DNA of 45,777 nt from Candidatus Doudnabacteria bacterium. Lineage in GTDB: Bacteria; Patescibacteriota; Doudnabacteria; UBA920; O2-02-FULL-48-8. This document shows, in pieces, positions 2,165 through 45,776 of this stretch. The position numbers and the translations under genes are program-made. Below the pieces are notes generated by a model. That model was not told the origin of the DNA and searched no databases. It was given only the letters and a program-made list of their open reading frames with translations. The stretch spans positions 1-45,777 of the forward strand of contig JACQHB010000005.1 in assembly GCA_016199215.1 (NCBI GenBank), read 5' to 3'. The stretch's first letter is position 1; every line of letters begins with the position of its first letter.

Positions 2165-3040
2165 TTATATCTCTGGATAGCCGAGGATAGGAATTTCATA
2201 ATCACCATATCGCCATACGCGTTGGCTTTCGGCCGGAGCGGATATAAAAGTGTTGTCGATTGACGCAGCGCTTGATTCGGGGCTAATATAAACGCCATCG
2301 CCGCAATTTGTTATGGTGTTATTTTTAATAATCTGTGAGCCAGCGATAGACGCTATGCCGGTATGGCAATCGTCTATAATATTGCCCGCGACTTCTTGGC
2401 TGCCTTGGGATTTAAGATCAATTCCTTCGTGCCCCGCGTCAGATAAATGATTGTTTATTATTTTTATATTTGAATTGGCCGAGGATATAGCTCCCCACAG
2501 GGCATGTCTGGATATGGTATTTTGGATAACACTGTTCGGCTGTTTTCCCGTAGGATTAAGACCGTTGCGAGTATATTCAACAATAACGTTATCAATAATA
2601 CTTCCATCACCTCGAAAAATAATTGCTTCCCAATCGGCTAAATCTGGTTTTTGCGCCGCTGATGTAAAGGTGATCGGCTGGGTTTGAGTCCCTTTGGCAA
2701 TTAATTTTCTTAAGATAAAAAGGCTTGAATGGGTGGTTGAATATGATTTAAGCCGCGTTGGATCCTTGTCATTAAAGCCGTCCGGAGGCACTTCATCGCC
2801 CCAATGGCGGTCATCACCGATAGAGAACTTAATTGTTGTCCCAGACAAGACAGTAAGATTGCCAAAAATTTGAACGTCCCCGGTGACATCAATAGTACCG
2901 CTCCAAATCTGGTTGCCGATAAACCGCCCGCTTACGGAAGTATTAGATTTCTGCGTTGTCGAAAGAAATTTATAGACAATAATAACAAGTATGAGAGTTA
3001 TAATTACCGCTAGAATATATAAGATCTTTTTCCAGTTCAT
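2165..3040 (-). CDS. Membrane-anchored right-handed beta-helix (NosD/pectin-lyase-like) protein; likely start MNWKKILY at 3040, not 3331
   Basis: N-terminal TM (ILYILAVIITLILVIIVY), GTTIKF, PITFTS, repeated I.NN.I...GI units. Confidence 0.7.
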   Translation of the reverse strand: MNWKKILYILAVIITLILVIIVYKFLSTTQKSNTSVSGRFIGNQIWSGTIDVTGDVQIFGNLTVLSGTTIKFSIGDDRHWGDEVPPDGFNDKDPTRLKSYSTTHSSLFILRKLIAKGTQTQPITFTSAAQKPDLADWEAIIFRGDGSIIDNVIVEYTRNGLNPTGKQPNSVIQNTISRHALWGAISSANSNIKIINNHLSDAGHEGIDLKSQGSQEVAGNIIDDCHTGIASIAGSQIIKNNTITNCGDGVYISPESSAASIDNTFISAPAESQRVWRYGDYEIPILGYPEI

Positions 3041-18365: not shown

Positions 18366-19124
18366 TTATAGGTCAAAACCAAGTTTATTAAATACTTCTT
18401 TTACCTGCCGGGCAAGTTCATCGATATCTTTGGCTTGCTGAGCTTCTTTGCCGAATATCCGGAAATGATAAACCGGCAAATAATCCGGCCCCTCGATAAA
18501 TATTCTATCTTCATACAGCAAAAAATCAAGTTCCTCGGAGGTTAGCTTGTTGCCGTATCGTTCTTTATAAGTTTCCTCATCTTGCAAAGACATTCTCTGC
18601 CCGCTTGCGTCGGAAAAAAGAGGAACGTCTTTTGATCTCGCTATCCCCCATGCTTTTTCAGCGGACTTGATTGCGGATCGTGGAAACCCGAGCAAAAACC
18701 CTCTCTTACTATGCCATTTTGGATCCTCTTCCCCACTGGGGCGAACATACAGATTATTAGAATTGATAAACTCTAAAATATTTTCACCTTTATCCCATCC
18801 AACATCACTGGCTAATTCTGGTTCTTCCATAACTCTTTTTTCCACCGCGCCAGGATTAATAATCATTCCGCCTGCAACTTGCAAATCAATACCTGATTTT
18901 CCCAAGGTTTCGGCAAGCGAAACAGGATCAACCCCCCTGCCTTCGATTTCCAACGCGGGCTTAACTCCTGCAAGCAACCCTATCAACCCCCCTCGATCTG
19001 TCGGGGAGAGTTCGGGAAGCGCGAATTCTTTTTGGCCATGGATAATGTCCTGGATCATTTCCCTTACTTCCCCGGCAGAAAAATCTCTTTTGTCTCCATC
19101 GGATCCCGTTTCAGAAAATCCCAT
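18366..19124 (-). CDS. Hypothetical protein
   Basis: 252-aa ORF tightly packed in the operon; no recognised motif. Confidence 0.7.
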   Translation of the reverse strand: MGFSETGSDGDKRDFSAGEVREMIQDIIHGQKEFALPELSPTDRGGLIGLLAGVKPALEIEGRGVDPVSLAETLGKSGIDLQVAGGMIINPGAVEKRVMEEPELASDVGWDKGENILEFINSNNLYVRPSGEEDPKWHSKRGFLLGFPRSAIKSAEKAWGIARSKDVPLFSDASGQRMSLQDEETYKERYGNKLTSEELDFLLYEDRIFIEGPDYLPVYHFRIFGKEAQQAKDIDELARQVKEVFNKLGFDL

Positions 19125-19125
19125 A

Positions 19126-19638
19126 TTATTTTCGTCCTTTGCTTCCTTTAATAGTTACAGCGATTTTACGCGGAGCGGTGCTCGCGGCTTTGTCCACCAA
19201 ATCGGAACTGGATTGGATCTTGCCGCCCCTGCCGATGTTAAAAACCATCCTGATTCCAAGTTTCCGGCAAGTTTTAATATCTTGATGCAGGGACGAGGAG
19301 GGGTGAACCGCGTCTTTTTTGTTCCTGTCTCCGCCGTTGGCAAATATGTCCGGCTTAAGCCTGGCGAGCGCCTCGGAAACGCTCATGTCTTGCGGGTCCT
19401 TTGGGTGTCTGGTGACAATCACCATATCAACCCAGCGGATCGCCTCCAAAACTTCCTTCCGCTCAACCACTGACATAAAATTGTATTTCTTTTTTTTCTT
19501 AAGCCAATTATCGTTGTTTAAAATTACAACCAGCTGATCGCCCAAGGCCCGGGCTTCTTTAAAAAGTCGAATATGCCCCGGATGTATGGGATCAAATCCC
19601 CCGCTTACGGCCACCACGACTTTTTTATTATCATTCAT
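19126..19638 (-). CDS. Cytidylyl/adenylyltransferase family (TagD/RfaE-like)
   Basis: GGFDPIHPGH (HxGH), ANGGDR, SSS motif. Confidence 0.88.
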   Translation of the reverse strand: MNDNKKVVVAVSGGFDPIHPGHIRLFKEARALGDQLVVILNNDNWLKKKKKYNFMSVVERKEVLEAIRWVDMVIVTRHPKDPQDMSVSEALARLKPDIFANGGDRNKKDAVHPSSSLHQDIKTCRKLGIRMVFNIGRGGKIQSSSDLVDKAASTAPRKIAVTIKGSKGRK

Positions 19639-20083
19639 TGTGATCAGTTTGATGAAAATTAATATTCTTCTCTATGAATGTTAATGACTCCAAGCTGTCT
19701 CTGGTTATATTTTCAGGAAGATTGTTAACATCGAACCACCCCAGTTCTGAACAAAGCCGAGGTTCTTTAATCTCTAGTTCTCTTTCCCAGCGGTGAATTT
19801 CAAAATATATATGCAAACGCGAATGATCACTCCTAAGCACGCTTCTTACGTGGACCAGCTTCGCCTCTCTCGGATCAATTTTTATTCCAAGCTCTTCTAA
19901 ACCTTCGCGCTTAAGCGCGTCCAAAACGAGCTCACCCTGATCCACGTGGCCCCCAAACAAATGAAATTTTCCATCCGCCCAGCCAGTGTTTTGCCTTTTG
20001 CCAAGCAATACCTTGCCGTCCTTTTTTAAAACCAAATGTACAGCAACAACAATTTTAAACCGATCTTTCGGGTCAATGCTCAT
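19631..20083 (-). CDS. NUDIX hydrolase
   Basis: GGHVDQGE...DALKREGLEELG Nudix box. Confidence 0.9.
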   Translation of the reverse strand: MSIDPKDRFKIVVAVHLVLKKDGKVLLGKRQNTGWADGKFHLFGGHVDQGELVLDALKREGLEELGIKIDPREAKLVHVRSVLRSDHSRLHIYFEIHRWERELEIKEPRLCSELGWFDVNNLPENITRDSLESLTFIEKNINFHQTDHNE

Positions 20084-20145
20084 GGTACTTCCTCAATTAA
20101 TTTTTTCGCCAGATCCTCTAGCAAACAATCTAATATAATTTTCAT
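20080..20145 (-). pseudogene. Internally deleted maf remnant (MKIILDCLLEDLAKKLIEEVP*)
   Basis: Matches both the start (MKIVL) and end (DLTKKLIEEA) of the intact maf; its TGA overlaps the NUDIX ATG (ATGA). Confidence 0.8.
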
Positions 20146-20168
20146 AGCTTATTTTGGCATGCCAGCGA

Positions 20169-20226
20169 CAAAAGGTCAAAAAACTACTTGTCCAATGTTG
20201 TGCTCGATCGAGCAATGTTTTGTACA
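20169..20226. repeat. 58-bp direct repeat, copy 1 (contains palindrome A copy 3 at 20189-20226)
   Basis: Identical to 20829-20886, offset 660 bp. Confidence 0.97.
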
Positions 20227-20227
20227 C

Positions 20228-20797
20228 TTATCCCACCGCTTCTTCGATTAATTTTTTCGTCAAGTCAACTGGGAGACCCGCGACACTTTCAATTGTTCCT
20301 TCCAGGCGATCAATAAACTTTGAAAAAGGTTCCTGTTCGGCGGCGAAACTTCCGGCATGCTCGAACACTTTACCGCTCTCCACAAATTGTTCGATGTCCT
20401 CTTTTCGAAAAGGCTTAAAATAAATTGTTACCACATCAACTCCTTCGACAATTTTGCCTGTTTTAATGTTTGTCACGACAACCGCAGCCACTGTCTGTAC
20501 TGGCTTATCTCTAAAACCCAATGCGATCCGGTAGGCTTCTTCTTTCGATTCCGGTTTTTCCAGAATTTCACCATCAAAAACTACCACCAAATCAGAGGTT
20601 ATTAGAATCGAATCAGAATCAATACTTGGAGTCAATGCCACTGCTTTCGCTCTGGCTAAAGTAAGAGTTAGTTCCTTAGGATCCCTACATCTTATTGATT
20701 TCTCATCAATATCAGCAGTAATCACTTCAAAGTCAAAGCCCATATCTTTTAAAATTTTCCTCCGCCTTGCCGAACCTGATCCTAACACAATTTTCAT
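20228..20797 (-). CDS. maf: Maf family nucleotide pyrophosphatase
   Basis: IVLGSGSARRRKIL, IDEKSI, ARAKA, TSDLVV, KPES.EEA, AG. Confidence 0.93.
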   Translation of the reverse strand: MKIVLGSGSARRRKILKDMGFDFEVITADIDEKSIRCRDPKELTLTLARAKAVALTPSIDSDSILITSDLVVVFDGEILEKPESKEEAYRIALGFRDKPVQTVAAVVVTNIKTGKIVEGVDVVTIYFKPFRKEDIEQFVESGKVFEHAGSFAAEQEPFSKFIDRLEGTIESVAGLPVDLTKKLIEEAVG

Positions 20798-20828
20798 AAT
20801 CGTTGAAGTTATTCTCTCACCAAATAAT

Positions 20829-20886
20829 CAAAAGGTCAAAAAACTACTTGTCCAATGTTGTGCTCGATCGAGCAATGTTTTGTACA
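20829..20886. repeat. 58-bp direct repeat, copy 2 (contains palindrome A copy 4 at 20849-20886)
   Basis: Identical to 20169-20226; encodes the last residues and stop of the PaaX-like ORF. Confidence 0.97.
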
Positions 20887-21377
20887 TGCTCGAGTCGACC
20901 GGAAAAAACCTTGACGTCATTCATCAATTTGAGTTCTTTTATCAAATCAGCGACATCATTTGAAATCTTAAAAGGGCTTATAAAAGCGCTTTTTTGAAAT
21001 TGAGTGTAACCATTTCTAACCAAAAAGCGGCGGAAAGAATCTCTTGCCTTATGTTTTTCTTCAGGAACGTCAAATAATACGACGGTAGACAACCCGTCTT
21101 TCCGTAAAACTTTCTTAACAGTACTCTTTCTTATTGTTTTAGCCTTTTCTGTTAATATATATGTACTTGGATATTTTTTTCGATCTTTTTTCACTAATCC
21201 TAACTTTACAAATTTTCTCAAACGGTAATAATACGTTTGCCGGGGAATGGTAAGAACTCTTAACTTGCCGTAAGGCGTAAAAGCAATTTCCTCTGCAAGC
21301 AGCCCCAGCTCCTTGATCATATCCCAAAGTTCCTCGGTCGCAATGCGAAGTATTTGCTTTGATGATAAATTCCTCAT
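20844..21377 (-). CDS. PaaX-like protein: winged HTH plus Cas2-like (PaaX central) domain
   Basis: wHTH (YYYRLRKFVKLGLV...YILTEK) then VVLFDVPEEKHKARDSFRRFL...GYTQFQKSAFISP. Confidence 0.82.
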   Translation of the reverse strand: MRNLSSKQILRIATEELWDMIKELGLLAEEIAFTPYGKLRVLTIPRQTYYYRLRKFVKLGLVKKDRKKYPSTYILTEKAKTIRKSTVKKVLRKDGLSTVVLFDVPEEKHKARDSFRRFLVRNGYTQFQKSAFISPFKISNDVADLIKELKLMNDVKVFSGRLEHVQNIARSSTTLDK

Positions 21378-21385
21378 AATTCAAT

Positions 21386-21423
21386 TGTACAACTTTGTGC
21401 TCGATCGAGCAATGTTTTGTACA
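21386..21423 (-). promoter_or_regulatory. Palindrome family A, copy 5, forming the promoter of the PaaX-like gene
   Basis: Minus strand TTGCTC-N17-TACAAT, 6 nt before the ATG. Confidence 0.8.
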
Positions 21424-21433
21424 TATTACATAT

Positions 21434-22396
21434 TTACCACGGTTTGTCCCAATCAAAACCGCGGCCGAAGTGCCCCCAAGAAGCCGTGTTTGCAAAAATC
21501 GGACGGTTAAGTTTCAACAATTTTTTAATTCCTGCGGGAGTCAGGTCATATTGCTTGCTGATATCCGTTATCTGATATCTACTATCTGATTTGAGGACTT
21601 CCGCTGTTGCCATAACCGGCAAGGGTTTCCCAATCGCGTAAGCCAGTTTTACTTTTACCTCTTTAGCTTTTTTCTTCTTTAAAAGGTCAACCGCTATTTT
21701 GCGGGCCATATAGGCTCCGCTGCGGTCAACTTTCGTGGCGTCCTTTCCCGAAAAACTCCCACCGCCCACGGAAATTTCAGGCCCATAAGCGTCAATCACT
21801 ATTTTACGCCCCGACAAGCCGGAATCCGCGTCAAAGCCGCCGAGAGTCCATTCGCCAGCCGGATTAACAAAATATTCCTCGGACTTAATAAGTTTTTTTG
21901 CAAGCTTCAACAGATCTTTAGTTTTTGAATTTTGAAAAGACGCGACAACAGCCAGGACTTTCTTCTCATCAACGGTCACTTGGACCTTGCCGTCAAACGG
22001 GTAGATTTTATAAATTTTTTGGCACAGTTCGCGCGCGAGATTGTATTCCTGCGGCATAAAATTTTCACTCTCTGCCGTGGCACAGCCAACCATGATTCCC
22101 TGATCCCCTGCTCCGCCCTGATCAACACCGCGAGCGATAAACGGGCTTTGATGAACCGTGTGCAAGTGAACGTGGTAACCCTTCCCAACGACTTTTTTAA
22201 CAACAGCTTCTATGTCAACTTTAGCTTTGCTTGTTATTTCGCCGCTTATAGAAACCCCTTTATGACCTCCCATAACCTCAACCGCCACCCTGGAATTCGG
22301 GTCTTTTTTTAAATAAGCGTCCAGAATGGAATCAGCAATAAAATCGCAAATTTTATCCGGATGCTTTGGGCTTACAAACTCGCAAGTTTTGATCAT
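21434..22396 (-). CDS. metK: S-adenosylmethionine synthetase (short form)
   Basis: TCEFVSPKHPDKICD, GAGDQG, NPAGEW..GG...DSGLSGRKI, GGGSFSGKDATKVDRSGAY, WGHFG. Confidence 0.96.
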   Translation of the reverse strand: MIKTCEFVSPKHPDKICDFIADSILDAYLKKDPNSRVAVEVMGGHKGVSISGEITSKAKVDIEAVVKKVVGKGYHVHLHTVHQSPFIARGVDQGGAGDQGIMVGCATAESENFMPQEYNLARELCQKIYKIYPFDGKVQVTVDEKKVLAVVASFQNSKTKDLLKLAKKLIKSEEYFVNPAGEWTLGGFDADSGLSGRKIVIDAYGPEISVGGGSFSGKDATKVDRSGAYMARKIAVDLLKKKKAKEVKVKLAYAIGKPLPVMATAEVLKSDSRYQITDISKQYDLTPAGIKKLLKLNRPIFANTASWGHFGRGFDWDKPW

Positions 22397-42289: not shown

Positions 42290-42777
42290 ATCGGCAGTTG
42301 TTTTTTTCCTGTAGATTTCCTAATCGCTCCCCTAATCACATTCCTAGCACCCCTCAAGCCAGCTTTGGCCAAATTCTCTACCAAAACTTGTTCTCTAAAT
42401 TTTGGAAACCTTTTCCTTTCCAAAAAATCTTGATACTTATCTCTCCTCGCCTGATAGGCTTTGCCCAATGCTTGTAACTTTGCATGAGCAACTCTCAACC
42501 CCTTACCATCTCGAGCTAGAGTATTACTAACAGTTGCAATAGTGTGCTCTGTCACTTTTAGATCACTAGAAATCTCTTCGTAAGTTTGCCCTTCCAGTAA
42601 CCTCCTCGCTATCTCTAGTCTCTTTGCAAACATTTTATACTCAGTATGAGTAAAGAGATCCCGAAACAACAATCGAATATCTTCTTTTTTATCGATTAAT
42701 GTAAAAACAGACCAAAGGTTATTAATATAATAGCCAAAATCCTTAGGATCTAAATTCAGTCTAGACAGTTTCGTCAT
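42286..42777 (-). CDS. TrpR-like YerC/YecD family DNA-binding protein
   Basis: LFRDLFTHTEYKMFAKRLEIARRLLEGQTYEEI...L.V...TIATVSN.L. Confidence 0.88.
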   Translation of the reverse strand: MTKLSRLNLDPKDFGYYINNLWSVFTLIDKKEDIRLLFRDLFTHTEYKMFAKRLEIARRLLEGQTYEEISSDLKVTEHTIATVSNTLARDGKGLRVAHAKLQALGKAYQARRDKYQDFLERKRFPKFREQVLVENLAKAGLRGARNVIRGAIRKSTGKKQLPI

Positions 42778-42803
42778 CTAATAAATTATAGCTTGCGCTT
42801 TCG

Positions 42804-42837
42804 AATACTGCAATACGAGAAAGTATTGCAGTATTAA
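42804..42837. repeat. Palindrome family D, copy 2; supplies the -35 of the YerC-like promoter
   Basis: Minus TTGCAG-N17-TATAAT, 7 nt before the ATG. Confidence 0.93.
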
Positions 42838-43937
42838 GACGCTAAATGTTTAAAGTCCTGATACTTCCCTTCTACAAATTCCTTAATCTTCTTCTGGAAA
42901 ATCTTCTTATCGAAATTTTGGGCGTGCTGGCGGATGATATTTGGATCAAACTTCGCAGTATCAAAGCTTTGAATCGCCTGCTTTATCGATTCCGAAGATT
43001 GGGTTTCAAAAAACTTCCCAGTTACTCCTTCCTTGACAATCTCAACAGCACCTCCGGCTCTGTAAGTGATCACCGGCGTGCCGCAGGCTTGCGCTTCCAA
43101 CATCATAATCCCGGCGTCCTCTTCGGCTGGAAAAATGAATGCCTGGGCTTCCGAATATCTTTTCCGAAGCTCCTCGTCCGAAACACGACCCAAAAACTCA
43201 ATATTGCTCCTGGCCATTGCCCGAAGTTTTTCGGAGTTTGTACCAGACCCGGCAACTTTCAAGGGCAAACCAAGTTCGTTAAATGCGGAAACAACTAATT
43301 CAATTTTTTTATAAGGCTCAAGCCTTGAGGCCACAAAAAAATAATTCTCTTTCTTCCCTTCCGGATGGAAAAGTTCAGTATCTACAGGAGGCCAGATCAC
43401 CTCTGCGTCGCGCTTGTAATATTTCTTGATACGATTTTTCACGTTTTCTGAATTGCAAACAAAAAAATCAGGGCCTTGCGCGGCAAAATAATCCCATTTC
43501 TTCAAAACCTTAAGCACGGGACGCGCCAACCACTTGGCCCAAAAGGGATAAGGCTGGCTTGCTAAATAATCTTCTTGCTCTGTCCACAAAAATCTGGTTG
43601 GAGTATGGCAATAGCAAATATGAAGCTTACCCTTGGCTTTCACGCCTTTCGCAAACGAAGAGGCGTCTGAAAGAATTAAATCGTAATCTGAAAAATCAAA
43701 AGTCCTGACAGCGGAAGGCATAAGCGCCAAAAACCAGCGGTGATGATTTTTTGCCAAAGGAAGCCTCTCCAAAAAACTTATCCGCTTGTCATAAGCCTCA
43801 AAAATCCCTTTGGTTTTGTCTTTGTCATATATCAAAACATGGATCGTGGCATGCGGCCAGATCTCGAGAAAATTTTGGAGAACCCTTTCGGCTCCTCCAA
43901 GCTGCGTTAAAAATTCGTGAACTAAAGCTATTTTCAT
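42834..43937 (-). CDS. GT4 glycosyltransferase
   Basis: KIALVHEFL...GGAERVL, YCHTPTR, SRLEPYK, EEDAGI..LEAQACG.PVI. Confidence 0.92.
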   Translation of the reverse strand: MKIALVHEFLTQLGGAERVLQNFLEIWPHATIHVLIYDKDKTKGIFEAYDKRISFLERLPLAKNHHRWFLALMPSAVRTFDFSDYDLILSDASSFAKGVKAKGKLHICYCHTPTRFLWTEQEDYLASQPYPFWAKWLARPVLKVLKKWDYFAAQGPDFFVCNSENVKNRIKKYYKRDAEVIWPPVDTELFHPEGKKENYFFVASRLEPYKKIELVVSAFNELGLPLKVAGSGTNSEKLRAMARSNIEFLGRVSDEELRKRYSEAQAFIFPAEEDAGIMMLEAQACGTPVITYRAGGAVEIVKEGVTGKFFETQSSESIKQAIQSFDTAKFDPNIIRQHAQNFDKKIFQKKIKEFVEGKYQDFKHLAS

Positions 43938-43970
43938 AGTTAGATCCCCGATTGCTTGTCCTAACCTTCG

Positions 43971-45389
43971 CTAATAATCCACCTTTGACTTACGGCCCAT
44001 TAGGATCAAGATTGTTTTGAAAATTATGTAAAAATCAAGCCAGATGGACCAGTTTTCGATATAGAAAGAATCAAGGCGGATTTCTTCTTCAAATGAAAGC
44101 TCCGGGTTATAAGCTTGGGTAATCTGGGTCAAGCCTGTTGCGCCTGGCTTAATGATAAAAATTTTCTTGTAATTATCCTGGAATTTTTCCACTTCTTTGA
44201 CCATATGGACCCTAGGGCCAACCAAACTCATCTGCCCCCGCAATATATGCCAAAGCTGGGGAAGCTCGTCGATCTTTGTCCGTCGAATAAATCTTCCCAC
44301 TTTGGTAACCCTCGGATCGTTTTTGATTTTTACAAACGGTCCTTGTCTGGAATTCTGTTTCTCAAGCTCGGCCCGAAGTCTATCCCCACTCTCCGTGCCC
44401 TCGCTCATCTCGTAAAACATTGACCGGAATTTGTAGCATTCAAAAGAGGCTAAGCGGGCGGCCCTTGGCTGATGGAAAAATATCGGCCCCTTTGATTCCA
44501 GTTTAATCGCAATAGCTGTAAGTAATATGATCGGACTTGAAAGAATTAATCCTAGAAGTGAAATAATCACATCCATCAGCCTTTTGATGGCTCTTCCCCA
44601 CCCTTCAAGCGGGGTTCCTTTCAAAACTATGATCGGCATCCCGGAAATCGTTTCGACGCTGACATTGGTGGTGGAAGTTTCAAAAAGGTTCGGGACAAAA
44701 TTGAACCGAATCCCATAATCGCGGCAAAACAGCAGAATCCGCGCGGCGATTTCCTGGTCCAAAAAAGGATCTGCCTGCAGCAGTTCATCTATCCCCGTAT
44801 TAATCCTCAACTCCTCCAACTTCCGAATCAGTTCCTGCGGATCCGTTTGGGAATCAAACAATCCCACCGCTCTGAATCCCGTCTCCGGACGGGACTTTAT
44901 TTGATAAACTAAATCTTCTTTCTTATCCTCACCCACGATTACCGCAAGCCTGTGCAATCCAATCCCTTGTCGCAGCATCTGTACCTGGACTATACGAAGG
45001 ACAATCCTTCCCAGGCTGATGAAAACAATAGTTAGAACCCAAGTCAACAAAATAATAAGCCTGGACGGAAAAACTGTTTGGTTGAAAAAAAACAAAACCA
45101 CCACCAGCAAAAGCGCAGAGGAGGTGGAAAGCGTGATCCTGGAAAGTTCGTGCACGATCCGACGGGTACCTTTGAGATTGTAAAGCCCGGCGATTGCCAG
45201 CAAGCAGATAATTATGGGGCTGACAAGAATCAAAATCCTTAAATAATCAGCAAACAGCAAATTGTAAAGTATTGGCCGGACTTCTTCCAATTCGAAGCGT
45301 AAATAAAAAGCGGCAGTGCCTGCCAGGATTATCATCAAAAAATCCACCACAATCGAGATTAAATTGAAGAGAAGTTCAGAGCGCTTCAT
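43971..45389 (-). CDS. Undecaprenyl-phosphate sugar phosphotransferase (WcaJ/WbaP family)
   Basis: KRLMDV, KFRSM, KNDPRVTKVGRFIR...DELPQLW..L.G.MSLVGPR. Confidence 0.94.
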   Translation of the reverse strand: MKRSELLFNLISIVVDFLMIILAGTAAFYLRFELEEVRPILYNLLFADYLRILILVSPIIICLLAIAGLYNLKGTRRIVHELSRITLSTSSALLLVVVLFFFNQTVFPSRLIILLTWVLTIVFISLGRIVLRIVQVQMLRQGIGLHRLAVIVGEDKKEDLVYQIKSRPETGFRAVGLFDSQTDPQELIRKLEELRINTGIDELLQADPFLDQEIAARILLFCRDYGIRFNFVPNLFETSTTNVSVETISGMPIIVLKGTPLEGWGRAIKRLMDVIISLLGLILSSPIILLTAIAIKLESKGPIFFHQPRAARLASFECYKFRSMFYEMSEGTESGDRLRAELEKQNSRQGPFVKIKNDPRVTKVGRFIRRTKIDELPQLWHILRGQMSLVGPRVHMVKEVEKFQDNYKKIFIIKPGATGLTQITQAYNPELSFEEEIRLDSFYIENWSIWLDFYIIFKTILILMGRKSKVDY

Positions 45390-45502
45390 CCCGTTAAAAA
45401 TTGATTACGCTTAAGAATATGCGTTATTAGCAAAAATCCCGTTTAAGACCATGCATCGCAGGCTTACGCTTTTTATTGAGAATTAGCTATTTCTAACGGG
45501 AT
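45388..45502. repeat. Inverted pair of family B motif, pair 3
   Basis: atcccgttaaaaat ... atttctaacgggat; left arm supplies the ATG. Confidence 0.8.
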
Positions 45503-45522
45503 TCATCCCTATCATTATAATC

Positions 45523-45556
45523 AAAAGACCCGCGTTTATCAACGCGGGTCTTTTTT
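45523..45556 (-). terminator. Intrinsic terminator after the RRM gene
   Basis: aaaagacccgcgtt-tatc-aacgcgggtctttt. Confidence 0.9.
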
Positions 45557-45566
45557 GATTCAAAAA

Positions 45567-45776
45567 TTATCGATCTCTGAATCCGCCTCGTCCACCACCA
45601 CCGCCGCCAAATCCTCGACCGCTCCCACCTCGTGGGCCTTCGGTTCTGGGTCTGGCTTCGTTGACAGCGAGCGTACGACCGCCAAAGTCAGTTCCGTTCA
45701 GCATTTGGACTGCCTTGTCTGCTTCCTCATCGGAAGACATCTCGACAAAACCAAAGCCTTTGGATCGTCCCGAAAA
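45567..45776 (-). CDS. RRM RNA-binding protein, C-terminal part (5' end outside window)
   Basis: [10 protein letters not shown] (RNP1), [18 protein letters not shown], Gly-rich tail; absent from the ORF track. Confidence 0.92.

Follow-up and report, generated by a model that had tools for sequence, protein, structure and literature searches.

The window, the whole 45,777-nt stretch of DNA analyzed here, belongs to the 0.52-Mb genome (79% complete) of a CPR bacterium. It carries an intact maf gene between two perfect 58-nt repeats and, 82 nt downstream of this gene, a 21-codon open reading frame (ORF) that we read as the residue of another maf. We consider it likely that the maf formerly resident in this operon slot collapsed in frame to the 21-codon relic after a second, repeat-bounded maf of the same clade came to lie upstream of it.

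A 21-codon ORF with the two ends of a maf

The ORF (20080..20145, minus strand) has an ATG start in the ORF listing and translates as MKIILDCLLEDLAKKLIEEVP, followed by a stop codon. It begins with MKIIL, as a maf does, and its last ~15 codons (ending in LLEDLAKKLIEEVP and the stop codon) are those of a maf end; ~167 internal codons are lacking, the loss being in frame. The first 15 nt are identical to those of the intact maf at 13 of 15 positions, and the last 39 nt align with the intact gene in frame and in the same order at 74% identity; the likeness is confined to maf residues 1-5 and ~174-187. When the relic was subjected to 100,000 composition-preserving shuffles, its match to maf was equalled by 1,127 shuffles (1.1%) at the N-terminus, by 14 (0.014%) at the C-terminal tail and by none at both ends, which bears out the proposal of an earlier note that this ORF fuses a maf-like start to a maf-like end. 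Among the 912 ORFs of 18-25 aa in the genome, the relic obtained the top score against maf (38; next 31).

The deletion junction corresponds to codons 6-7 (GAT TGT), where the maf family has GS.S (N-terminal end) and GLP (C-terminal end), and the GLP motif is already altered to CLL in the relic. With ~20 of 189 residues left, the ~185-residue Maf domain (PF02545) and the catalytic core are missing. By its sequence, the ORF is to be regarded as the descendant of a maf that cannot be an enzyme. Its TGA stop codon overlaps the ATG of the following NUDIX hydrolase gene in the ATGA that the same note had described (20080-20083, minus; tcat on the plus strand), and its terminal codons contain GAGGA, 6 nt ahead of the NUDIX ATG.

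The maf slot in relatives

On the minus strand, the genes and elements are arranged in the order metK (21434..22396), a palindromic site, a PaaX_M-like regulator gene, the repeat R2, a 31-nt spacer, the intact maf, 1 nt and the repeat R1. Beyond R1 follow a 23-nt spacer, the relic, the NUDIX hydrolase gene (19631..20083, minus; 150 aa; Pfam PF00293, 3.9e-16), which is the first intact gene of the old maf operon, a cytidylyltransferase-like gene (CTase; 19126..19638, minus; Pfam PF01467) that shares 8 nt with the end of NUDIX, an ORF of 252 aa (18366-19124) for which Pfam gave no match, a PLD-type gene and secD.

In the relatives L115, L118 and L119, a full 188-aa maf lies directly upstream of the orthologous NUDIX gene with a 4-nt stop/start overlap. 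The maf of L115 ends in LTQKLIKEVL and is joined by GTGA to a NUDIX start of VIISPNDRYK; in L118, LTKKLIQEVSA is joined by ATGA to MTIAPADRFK, and in L119, LTKKLIEAVSV by ATGA to MTISPSDRFK. The corresponding junction of the window consists of the relic end LAKKLIEEVP, ATGA and the NUDIX start MSIDPKDRFK. The NUDIX orthologues with shared synteny are 58-63% identical. After NUDIX, all three relatives continue with CTase, sortase and SecDF. In L118 and L119, metK is found 2.4 kb upstream of the slot, as in the window, and anchors the synteny MetK ... maf-NUDIX-CTase ... SecDF. The order maf-CTase or maf-NUDIX-CTase was observed in 12 relatives. Where maf directly precedes CTase, the two genes overlap in G009 and G002 (ATGA) and in G011 and G022, and are separated by 2 nt in L135 and 15 nt in L136. 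Every relative examined has one maf only.

Because the relatives hold a full maf there with the same junction, the position of the mini-ORF is the ancestral maf slot. The comparison of maf-NUDIX junctions that had been suggested as a check thus returned a full maf with a GTGA or ATGA overlap in L115, L118 and L119, and upheld the claim that a resident maf had lost ~500 internal bp. We interpret the 21-codon ORF as the slot-resident maf, orthologous in position, that has shrunk from ~188 codons by an in-frame loss of ~500 bp.

No genome closer than ~60% protein identity shows an intermediate state. In G001, the only genome of the same genus, maf, the PaaX-like gene and the palindromic site are all missing, and NUDIX has no close orthologue (the best match has 30% identity). 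The G001 contig breaks at the locus: metK appears to be followed after ~170 nt by the start of CTase (MPKDKPIVV..) at the contig end, and the next contig starts inside CTase and continues straight into PLD (loci L112 and L113). G001 thus seems to lack the 252-aa ORF as well as the regulator, maf and NUDIX. The search for comparable relics covered three places, the gap separating MetK from NUDIX in L114, the sequence that follows MetK in G001 and the 48 nt between maf and NUDIX in G014, and gave only noise.

Several other features of this region were observed in relatives. The 252-aa ORF is not found at the CTase-PLD junction of G001 and L114, and in G014 an ORF of PLD length follows right after CTase. 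L114 keeps the synteny of metK, NUDIX, CTase and PLD, but has no maf ahead of NUDIX; a visibly G+C-rich stretch of 0.75 kb (2233-3000) is present instead, with an ORF of 131-133 aa on the opposite strand. The old maf promoter may be represented by AATTTTGACG-16-AAAATA, ahead of the L114 NUDIX gene. In G014, the 48 nt between maf and NUDIX (L023, 1444-1491) contain a 5-codon ORF, MTTRT and a stop codon, with an ATGA overlap onto the annotated NUDIX start, which may be due to chance.

Divergence between the relic and the intact maf

Over the terminal 13 codons of the relic, 28/39 nt are shared with the intact maf, and 27/39 nt with each of the mafs of L117 and G007, which belong to other genera. 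The mini-ORF differs from the intact copy, as the earlier note had stated, and is as distant from it as from the mafs of other genera. The spacers before the relic (23 nt) and before the intact maf (31 nt) are unrelated, and with these values the two copies are too diverged for a recent in-genome duplicate. A codon-by-codon reading of the codon table identified 6 of 11 differences between the relic and the intact maf as synonymous, and 4 of 5 in the DL.KKLIEE block, a pattern that would be expected if both genes were coding during divergence. Since the divergence equals the distance to other genera and about half of the changes are synonymous, the relic can be taken not to be a recent (partial) copy of the intact maf. 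The relic tail scores best against the maf tails of clade A (described below).

These data also bear on the idea that the mini-ORF is not a maf remnant, but a leader peptide or upstream ORF (uORF), or a small copy made secondarily from the two ends of the intact maf, with a likeness due to chance or convergence. It is indeed short and A/T-rich, and begins 5 nt past a -10-like box, where a regulatory uORF could sit. Such an origin does not account for the joint N- and C-terminal match, reached in 0 of the 100,000 shuffles, or for the exact correspondence in position and junction with the full-length maf in three relatives. The start MKIIL is moreover shared with L115, L116, L117 and G007, unlike the MKIVL of the intact neighbor, and the nucleotide divergence from the intact maf argues against a recent partial copy of it. 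We therefore regard the leader, uORF or chance-likeness reading as largely refuted, with hardly any probability left to it.

Phylogeny of the intact maf

The intact maf (20228..20797, minus) encodes 189 aa and matches the Pfam Maf profile over its full length (PF02545, 4.1e-42; 144.4 bits, gathering cut-off 27; positions 1-186 of the 187 in the profile). Pfam gave no other Maf match in the genome. When 35 mafs were placed in a maximum-likelihood tree, two supported clades emerged. Clade B (99/98) contains the NUDIX- or CTase-coupled copies of L115, L118, L119, G002, G009, G011 and G022, and clade A (97/90) contains the intact maf of the window together with those of G007, G014, L135 and L136 and a subclade that includes L116 and L117. 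These two are the members of the subclade with a known context, and both sit in a sugar-transferase/GT4 locus. In the SecD tree, which was used as a proxy for the species tree, the window and G001 (99/99) fall within a group of G014, G007/G021 and L135 (94/98), and the holders of clade-B mafs lie outside this group. The CTase tree was too poorly resolved to place the window.

The intact maf is accordingly classified, by its place in the tree, as the type expected for the species group of the window. There is no sign of a distant transfer, because the maf and SecD trees agree, and horizontal transfer from a distant donor was ruled out on this congruence. The intact maf does not show the discordance with the species tree that marks xenologous displacement (maf clade A 97/90, SecD group 94/98).

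The closest homologues of the intact maf (62-63%) are those of L116 and L117, located between Bac_transf and GT4 genes. The equivalent junction of the window (43938..43973, minus) is a short gap without a maf. A move of the gene from the sugar-transferase/GT4 locus is unlikely, as its promoter, TTGACC-17-TGAGAGAAT, resembles that of the slot-type maf of L135 and not those of L116/L117. The locus itself (42385-45776; RRM, Bac_transf, GT4 and TrpR) is conserved in L116 and L117 at 63-83% identity. Between Bac_transf and GT4, L116 has GIY-YIG and maf as extra genes, and L117 has a TrpR fragment, maf and an IS200-type Y1 transposase.

The repeats, the palindromic site and the PaaX_M-like regulator

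R1 (20169..20226) begins 1 nt past the stop codon of the intact maf, and R2 (20829..20886) takes in the final 14 codons and the stop codon of the gene for a regulator with a PaaX_M / Cas2-like domain (20844..21377, minus; 177 aa; Pfam PF20803, 4.2e-16). The PaaX_M-like homologues are 164-169 aa long and stop just ahead of their site. The two repeats are direct, identical at 58/58 nt and 660 nt apart, and they bound a 602-nt unit made up of the promoter -10 region and maf. The first 38 nt form an imperfect palindrome, TGTaCAA-N5-TGCTCGATCGAGCA-N5-TTGkACA (20189-20226 in R1), followed on the minus strand by AGTAG, the -35 box TTTTTTGACC and TTTTG; the last 20 nt (AGTAGTTTTTTGACCTTTTG) contain the regulator stop codon (in R2) and the -35 box. 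An upstream copy of the 38-bp site is located at 21386..21423, 8 nt before the regulator ATG, and would constitute the operator/promoter of the regulator.

The site was counted 7 times in the genome of the window and 3-5 times in relatives. Two sites flank the PaaX_M-like gene, one before the start and one after the stop, in L120, L121, G021, G011, G022, G017 and G010, with cores that vary by lineage (TGCTCGATCGAGCA, TGCTCGTACGAGCA, TGCGCGGCCGAGCA and TGCTCGGCCGAGCA). In the 152 loci of relatives, sites were found only around PaaX-like genes, and across genomes the site co-varies with the PaaX_M-like gene, as an operator should. We infer that the 38-bp site is the regulator's own binding site. 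No exact copy of it was present in 185,579 species genomes. A high-copy REP/MITE-like element was ruled out by the low number of sites and their location around the PaaX-like gene, and an intrinsic terminator by the RNA fold of R1, which is no better than that of shuffles (z = -0.33). Paired sites around PaaX-like genes in other genomes share only ~26 nt; the identity of 58/58 nt extends ~31 nt past this usual sharing and therefore points to recent recombination or conversion across the segment.

The PaaX_M module occurs in unrelated gene neighborhoods (L120, L121, L123-L126 and L128), and the PaaX_M-like family has several paralogues per genome, some of the matches containing in-frame stops. 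A second paralogue (C4:65464-65934) is accompanied by 40-nt perfect direct repeats, 564 nt apart (C4:65407-66010). At the other end of the window, an ORF whose class was read from its sequence as SAM-methyltransferase-like (1380-2075, minus) is bounded by sites at 1333-1370 and 2094-2131, which differ at 4 positions; the one at 1333 is flanked by convergent genes, a position in which an operator would hardly be expected. A further copy (C8:56055-56092) is situated inside the coding region of tsaD. Translated there, it gives VQNIARSSKKLD, a peptide almost identical to VQNIARSSTTLDK, which forms the C-terminal extension of the PaaX-like protein. In an alignment to solved TsaD structures, the position of this copy corresponds to a variable loop with a surplus of 7 residues. 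It is conceivable, though in our judgment improbable, that the unit of site, PaaX_M-like gene and site goes beyond an autoregulated repressor and is a small cassette-exchange system of CPR bacteria, in which the sites capture or shuffle single genes, and that the maf/relic pair is a fresh product of it. Were this true, the maf and the methyltransferase gene at 1380-2075 would each be captured between two sites, with another site in tsaD.

Other regulators were observed ahead of maf in relatives. L115 has an ArsR-type HTH_20 gene (270-570), and the motif ATTCGTACGAA[AT]GGTACT is found before both this regulator and maf; the same motif also precedes the maf of G007 (L024). G014 (L023) has a TrpR-like gene, with a repeat of its own before the regulator and before maf (2098-2120 and 2589-2611). 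Together with the PaaX_M-like gene of the window, the ArsR-type gene of L115 and the TrpR-like gene of G014 show that, within this family, at least three exchanges of the regulator ahead of maf have taken place.

Assembly and depth at the repeats

The relic and all four repeat junctions were recovered without mismatches in independent Logan contigs from four groundwater metagenome runs. These contigs break at the repeats and overlap by 30 nt, and cannot span 58 nt, so that the four junctions are compatible with either path through the repeat. An assembly artefact might thus be suspected, in which a wrong path was taken and the true arrangement is paaX-R-relic-NUDIX with a separate maf-R on a circle or at another locus, or in which two strains were merged. 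The contig-end overlaps in the assembly of the window, 110-119 nt, speak against it, since they imply a final k well above the 58-nt repeat and an order chosen by spanning reads. The depth of maf relative to its flanks was likewise ~1:1 in the four runs (9.8 vs 9.15, 13 vs 12.3, 7.85 vs 8.21 and 3 vs 4.4). An artefact is thus very improbable, and the relic itself would stand even if there were one.

In run X2, a low-depth contig of 151 nt was found that is 82% identical to the 5' part of NUDIX (window 19940-20035). It shows that the same aquifer samples harbor a closer relative than any of the genomes in the databases.

Origin of the maf/relic pair

In the ancestral state, maf would have been the first gene of a maf-NUDIX-cytidylyltransferase operon, its stop codon overlapping the NUDIX start by 4 nt. 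A second maf of the same family-level clade, with a maf-type promoter of its own, would then have been placed directly upstream of the slot, bounded by two identical 58-nt copies of the regulator site and -35 box. The donor of this second copy may have been a related Doudnabacteria lineage, with recombination taking place at the conserved site/-35 sequence. With two mafs present, redundancy would have allowed the downstream slot copy to lose ~167 internal codons in one in-frame deletion, leaving a relic with the promoter-proximal ATG, an open frame, the terminal codons with GAGGA and the ATGA overlap.

The arrival of the second copy is the weaker part of this scheme. The earlier note had proposed a divergent maf arriving in a repeat-flanked cassette: the flanking by perfect 58-nt repeats was found, but the intact gene belongs to the clade expected for the species group and has a promoter of the type seen ahead of the slot-resident maf of L135. 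Its phylogenetic position, where the species' own maf should be, is evidence against an outside origin, and the perfect identity of the repeats is odd for a donor diverged by ~25%, unless they were homogenized later.

These same observations would suit an old tandem duplication of the segment [site / -35 / maf] within the lineage, after which the two copies diverged while long remaining functional and the downstream one then collapsed, nothing having arrived; the 58-nt repeats would have been kept identical by selection on the site and -35 box together with gene conversion. Both maf copies have maf-type promoters and are clade-A-like, the intact maf is congruent with the clade of the species, and paired sites that are partly or wholly identical within a genome are known from elsewhere (26-27 nt in several genomes; 40 nt, perfect, in C4). 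On the other side, every relative examined has a single maf, and the relic and the intact copy have diverged as far as mafs of different genera, so that a duplication would have to predate the splits and be followed by many independent losses. The ~31 nt of the repeat beyond the conserved half-site are identical as well. We consider such a duplication unlikely, although it is the most probable of the alternatives, and prefer the collapse of the resident maf next to a second copy of the same clade.

Promoters and translational coupling

The 31 unique nt before the intact maf (20798..20828, minus) contain TGAGAGAAT, an extended -10 (20811-20816), and the 23 unique nt before the relic (20146..20168, minus) a -10-like CAAAAT (20151-20156) that ends 5 nt before the relic ATG. 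A consensus promoter scan gave TTGACC-17-GAGAAT for the intact maf and TTGACC-17-CAAAAT with TG for the relic. The promoter of the intact maf, TTGACC-17-TGAGAGAATAA, resembles that of the slot-type maf of L135, TTGACT-17-TGAGAGAATAA, and the -35 box TTTTTTGACC is also that of maf in L115. Both copies, the living and the dead, are thus preceded by a site and a maf-type promoter, with identity limited to the site/-35 part. The relic transcript is predicted to start from TTGACC-17-CAAAAT at or very near the relic ATG.

ATGA overlaps can give translational coupling, and short upstream ORFs can feed ribosomes to the next gene. The overlap between the relic and NUDIX is like that between the full maf and NUDIX in relatives, the upstream cistron here being a 21-codon leftover. 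SD-like motifs were present upstream of 15% of the long ORFs in the genome, against a background of 11%; since they are barely enriched, SD-independent initiation or coupling is plausible in this genome. The mini-ORF may be translated, and ribosomes ending at its UGA would restart on the overlapping AUG of NUDIX. The scarcity of SD-like motifs and the predicted transcription start at or beside the relic ATG both make this a reasonable route to NUDIX translation. The surviving parts of the relic would then be those that serve NUDIX expression, and translational coupling as the reason for the persistence of the mini-ORF fits the sequence. Against it, a deletion has a probability of 1 in 3 of being in frame by chance, and the GAGGA ahead of the NUDIX ATG could act alone.

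Discussion

In-place gene displacement and pseudogene relics are both well-known phenomena, and no new mechanism is established here. What is unusual is the neatness of the relic and the presence of perfect repeats containing the predicted site of a regulator. Mosaic operons were reportedly the subject of work by Omelchenko et al. in 2003. Pseudogene remnants with internal deletions occur in reduced genomes, such as those of Rickettsia, Mycobacterium leprae and insect endosymbionts. The relic resembles these in being a short gene residue at a syntenic position in a very small genome, and differs from them in an in-frame deletion that spared exactly the start, the stop and the 4-nt overlap, with a working copy only 82 nt away.

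The concept of gene displacement in situ, or xenologous displacement, within conserved operons has been reviewed by Koonin & Wolf 2008 (PMC2588523). As in such cases, the gene of an operon slot was here replaced by an adjacent copy of the same family with the operon context retained. Unlike xenologous displacement, the replacing maf is of the same clade as the host at the available resolution, and unlike most in situ displacements, a trace of the displaced gene can still be seen here, which is rare. The 602-nt unit between identical direct repeats is also reminiscent of Campbell-type (single-crossover) integration or unequal recombination, with integron cassettes as a distant analogy, and a circle of 660 bp could in principle integrate or excise via the 58-nt repeats. 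In contrast to the Campbell and integron cases, the repeat of the window is the predicted site of a regulator together with a promoter -35 box, and there are 3-7 copies per genome.

Maf proteins (YhdE/YceF/Maf) are nucleotide pyrophosphatases that act on modified nucleotides (Tchigvintsev et al. 2013, PMC3899018), and the pairing of maf with NUDIX would fit a role in nucleotide house-cleaning. The locus provides a dated-looking snapshot of an ultra-small CPR genome in which, within a conserved operon, one housekeeping gene copy takes the place of another while the downstream genes are undisturbed. The old maf has been reduced to the pieces that touch its neighbor, namely the start, the frame, the last codons and the ATGA overlap. 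Provided that the idea of coupling is true, it would show that residues of pseudogenes can be kept as expression signals.
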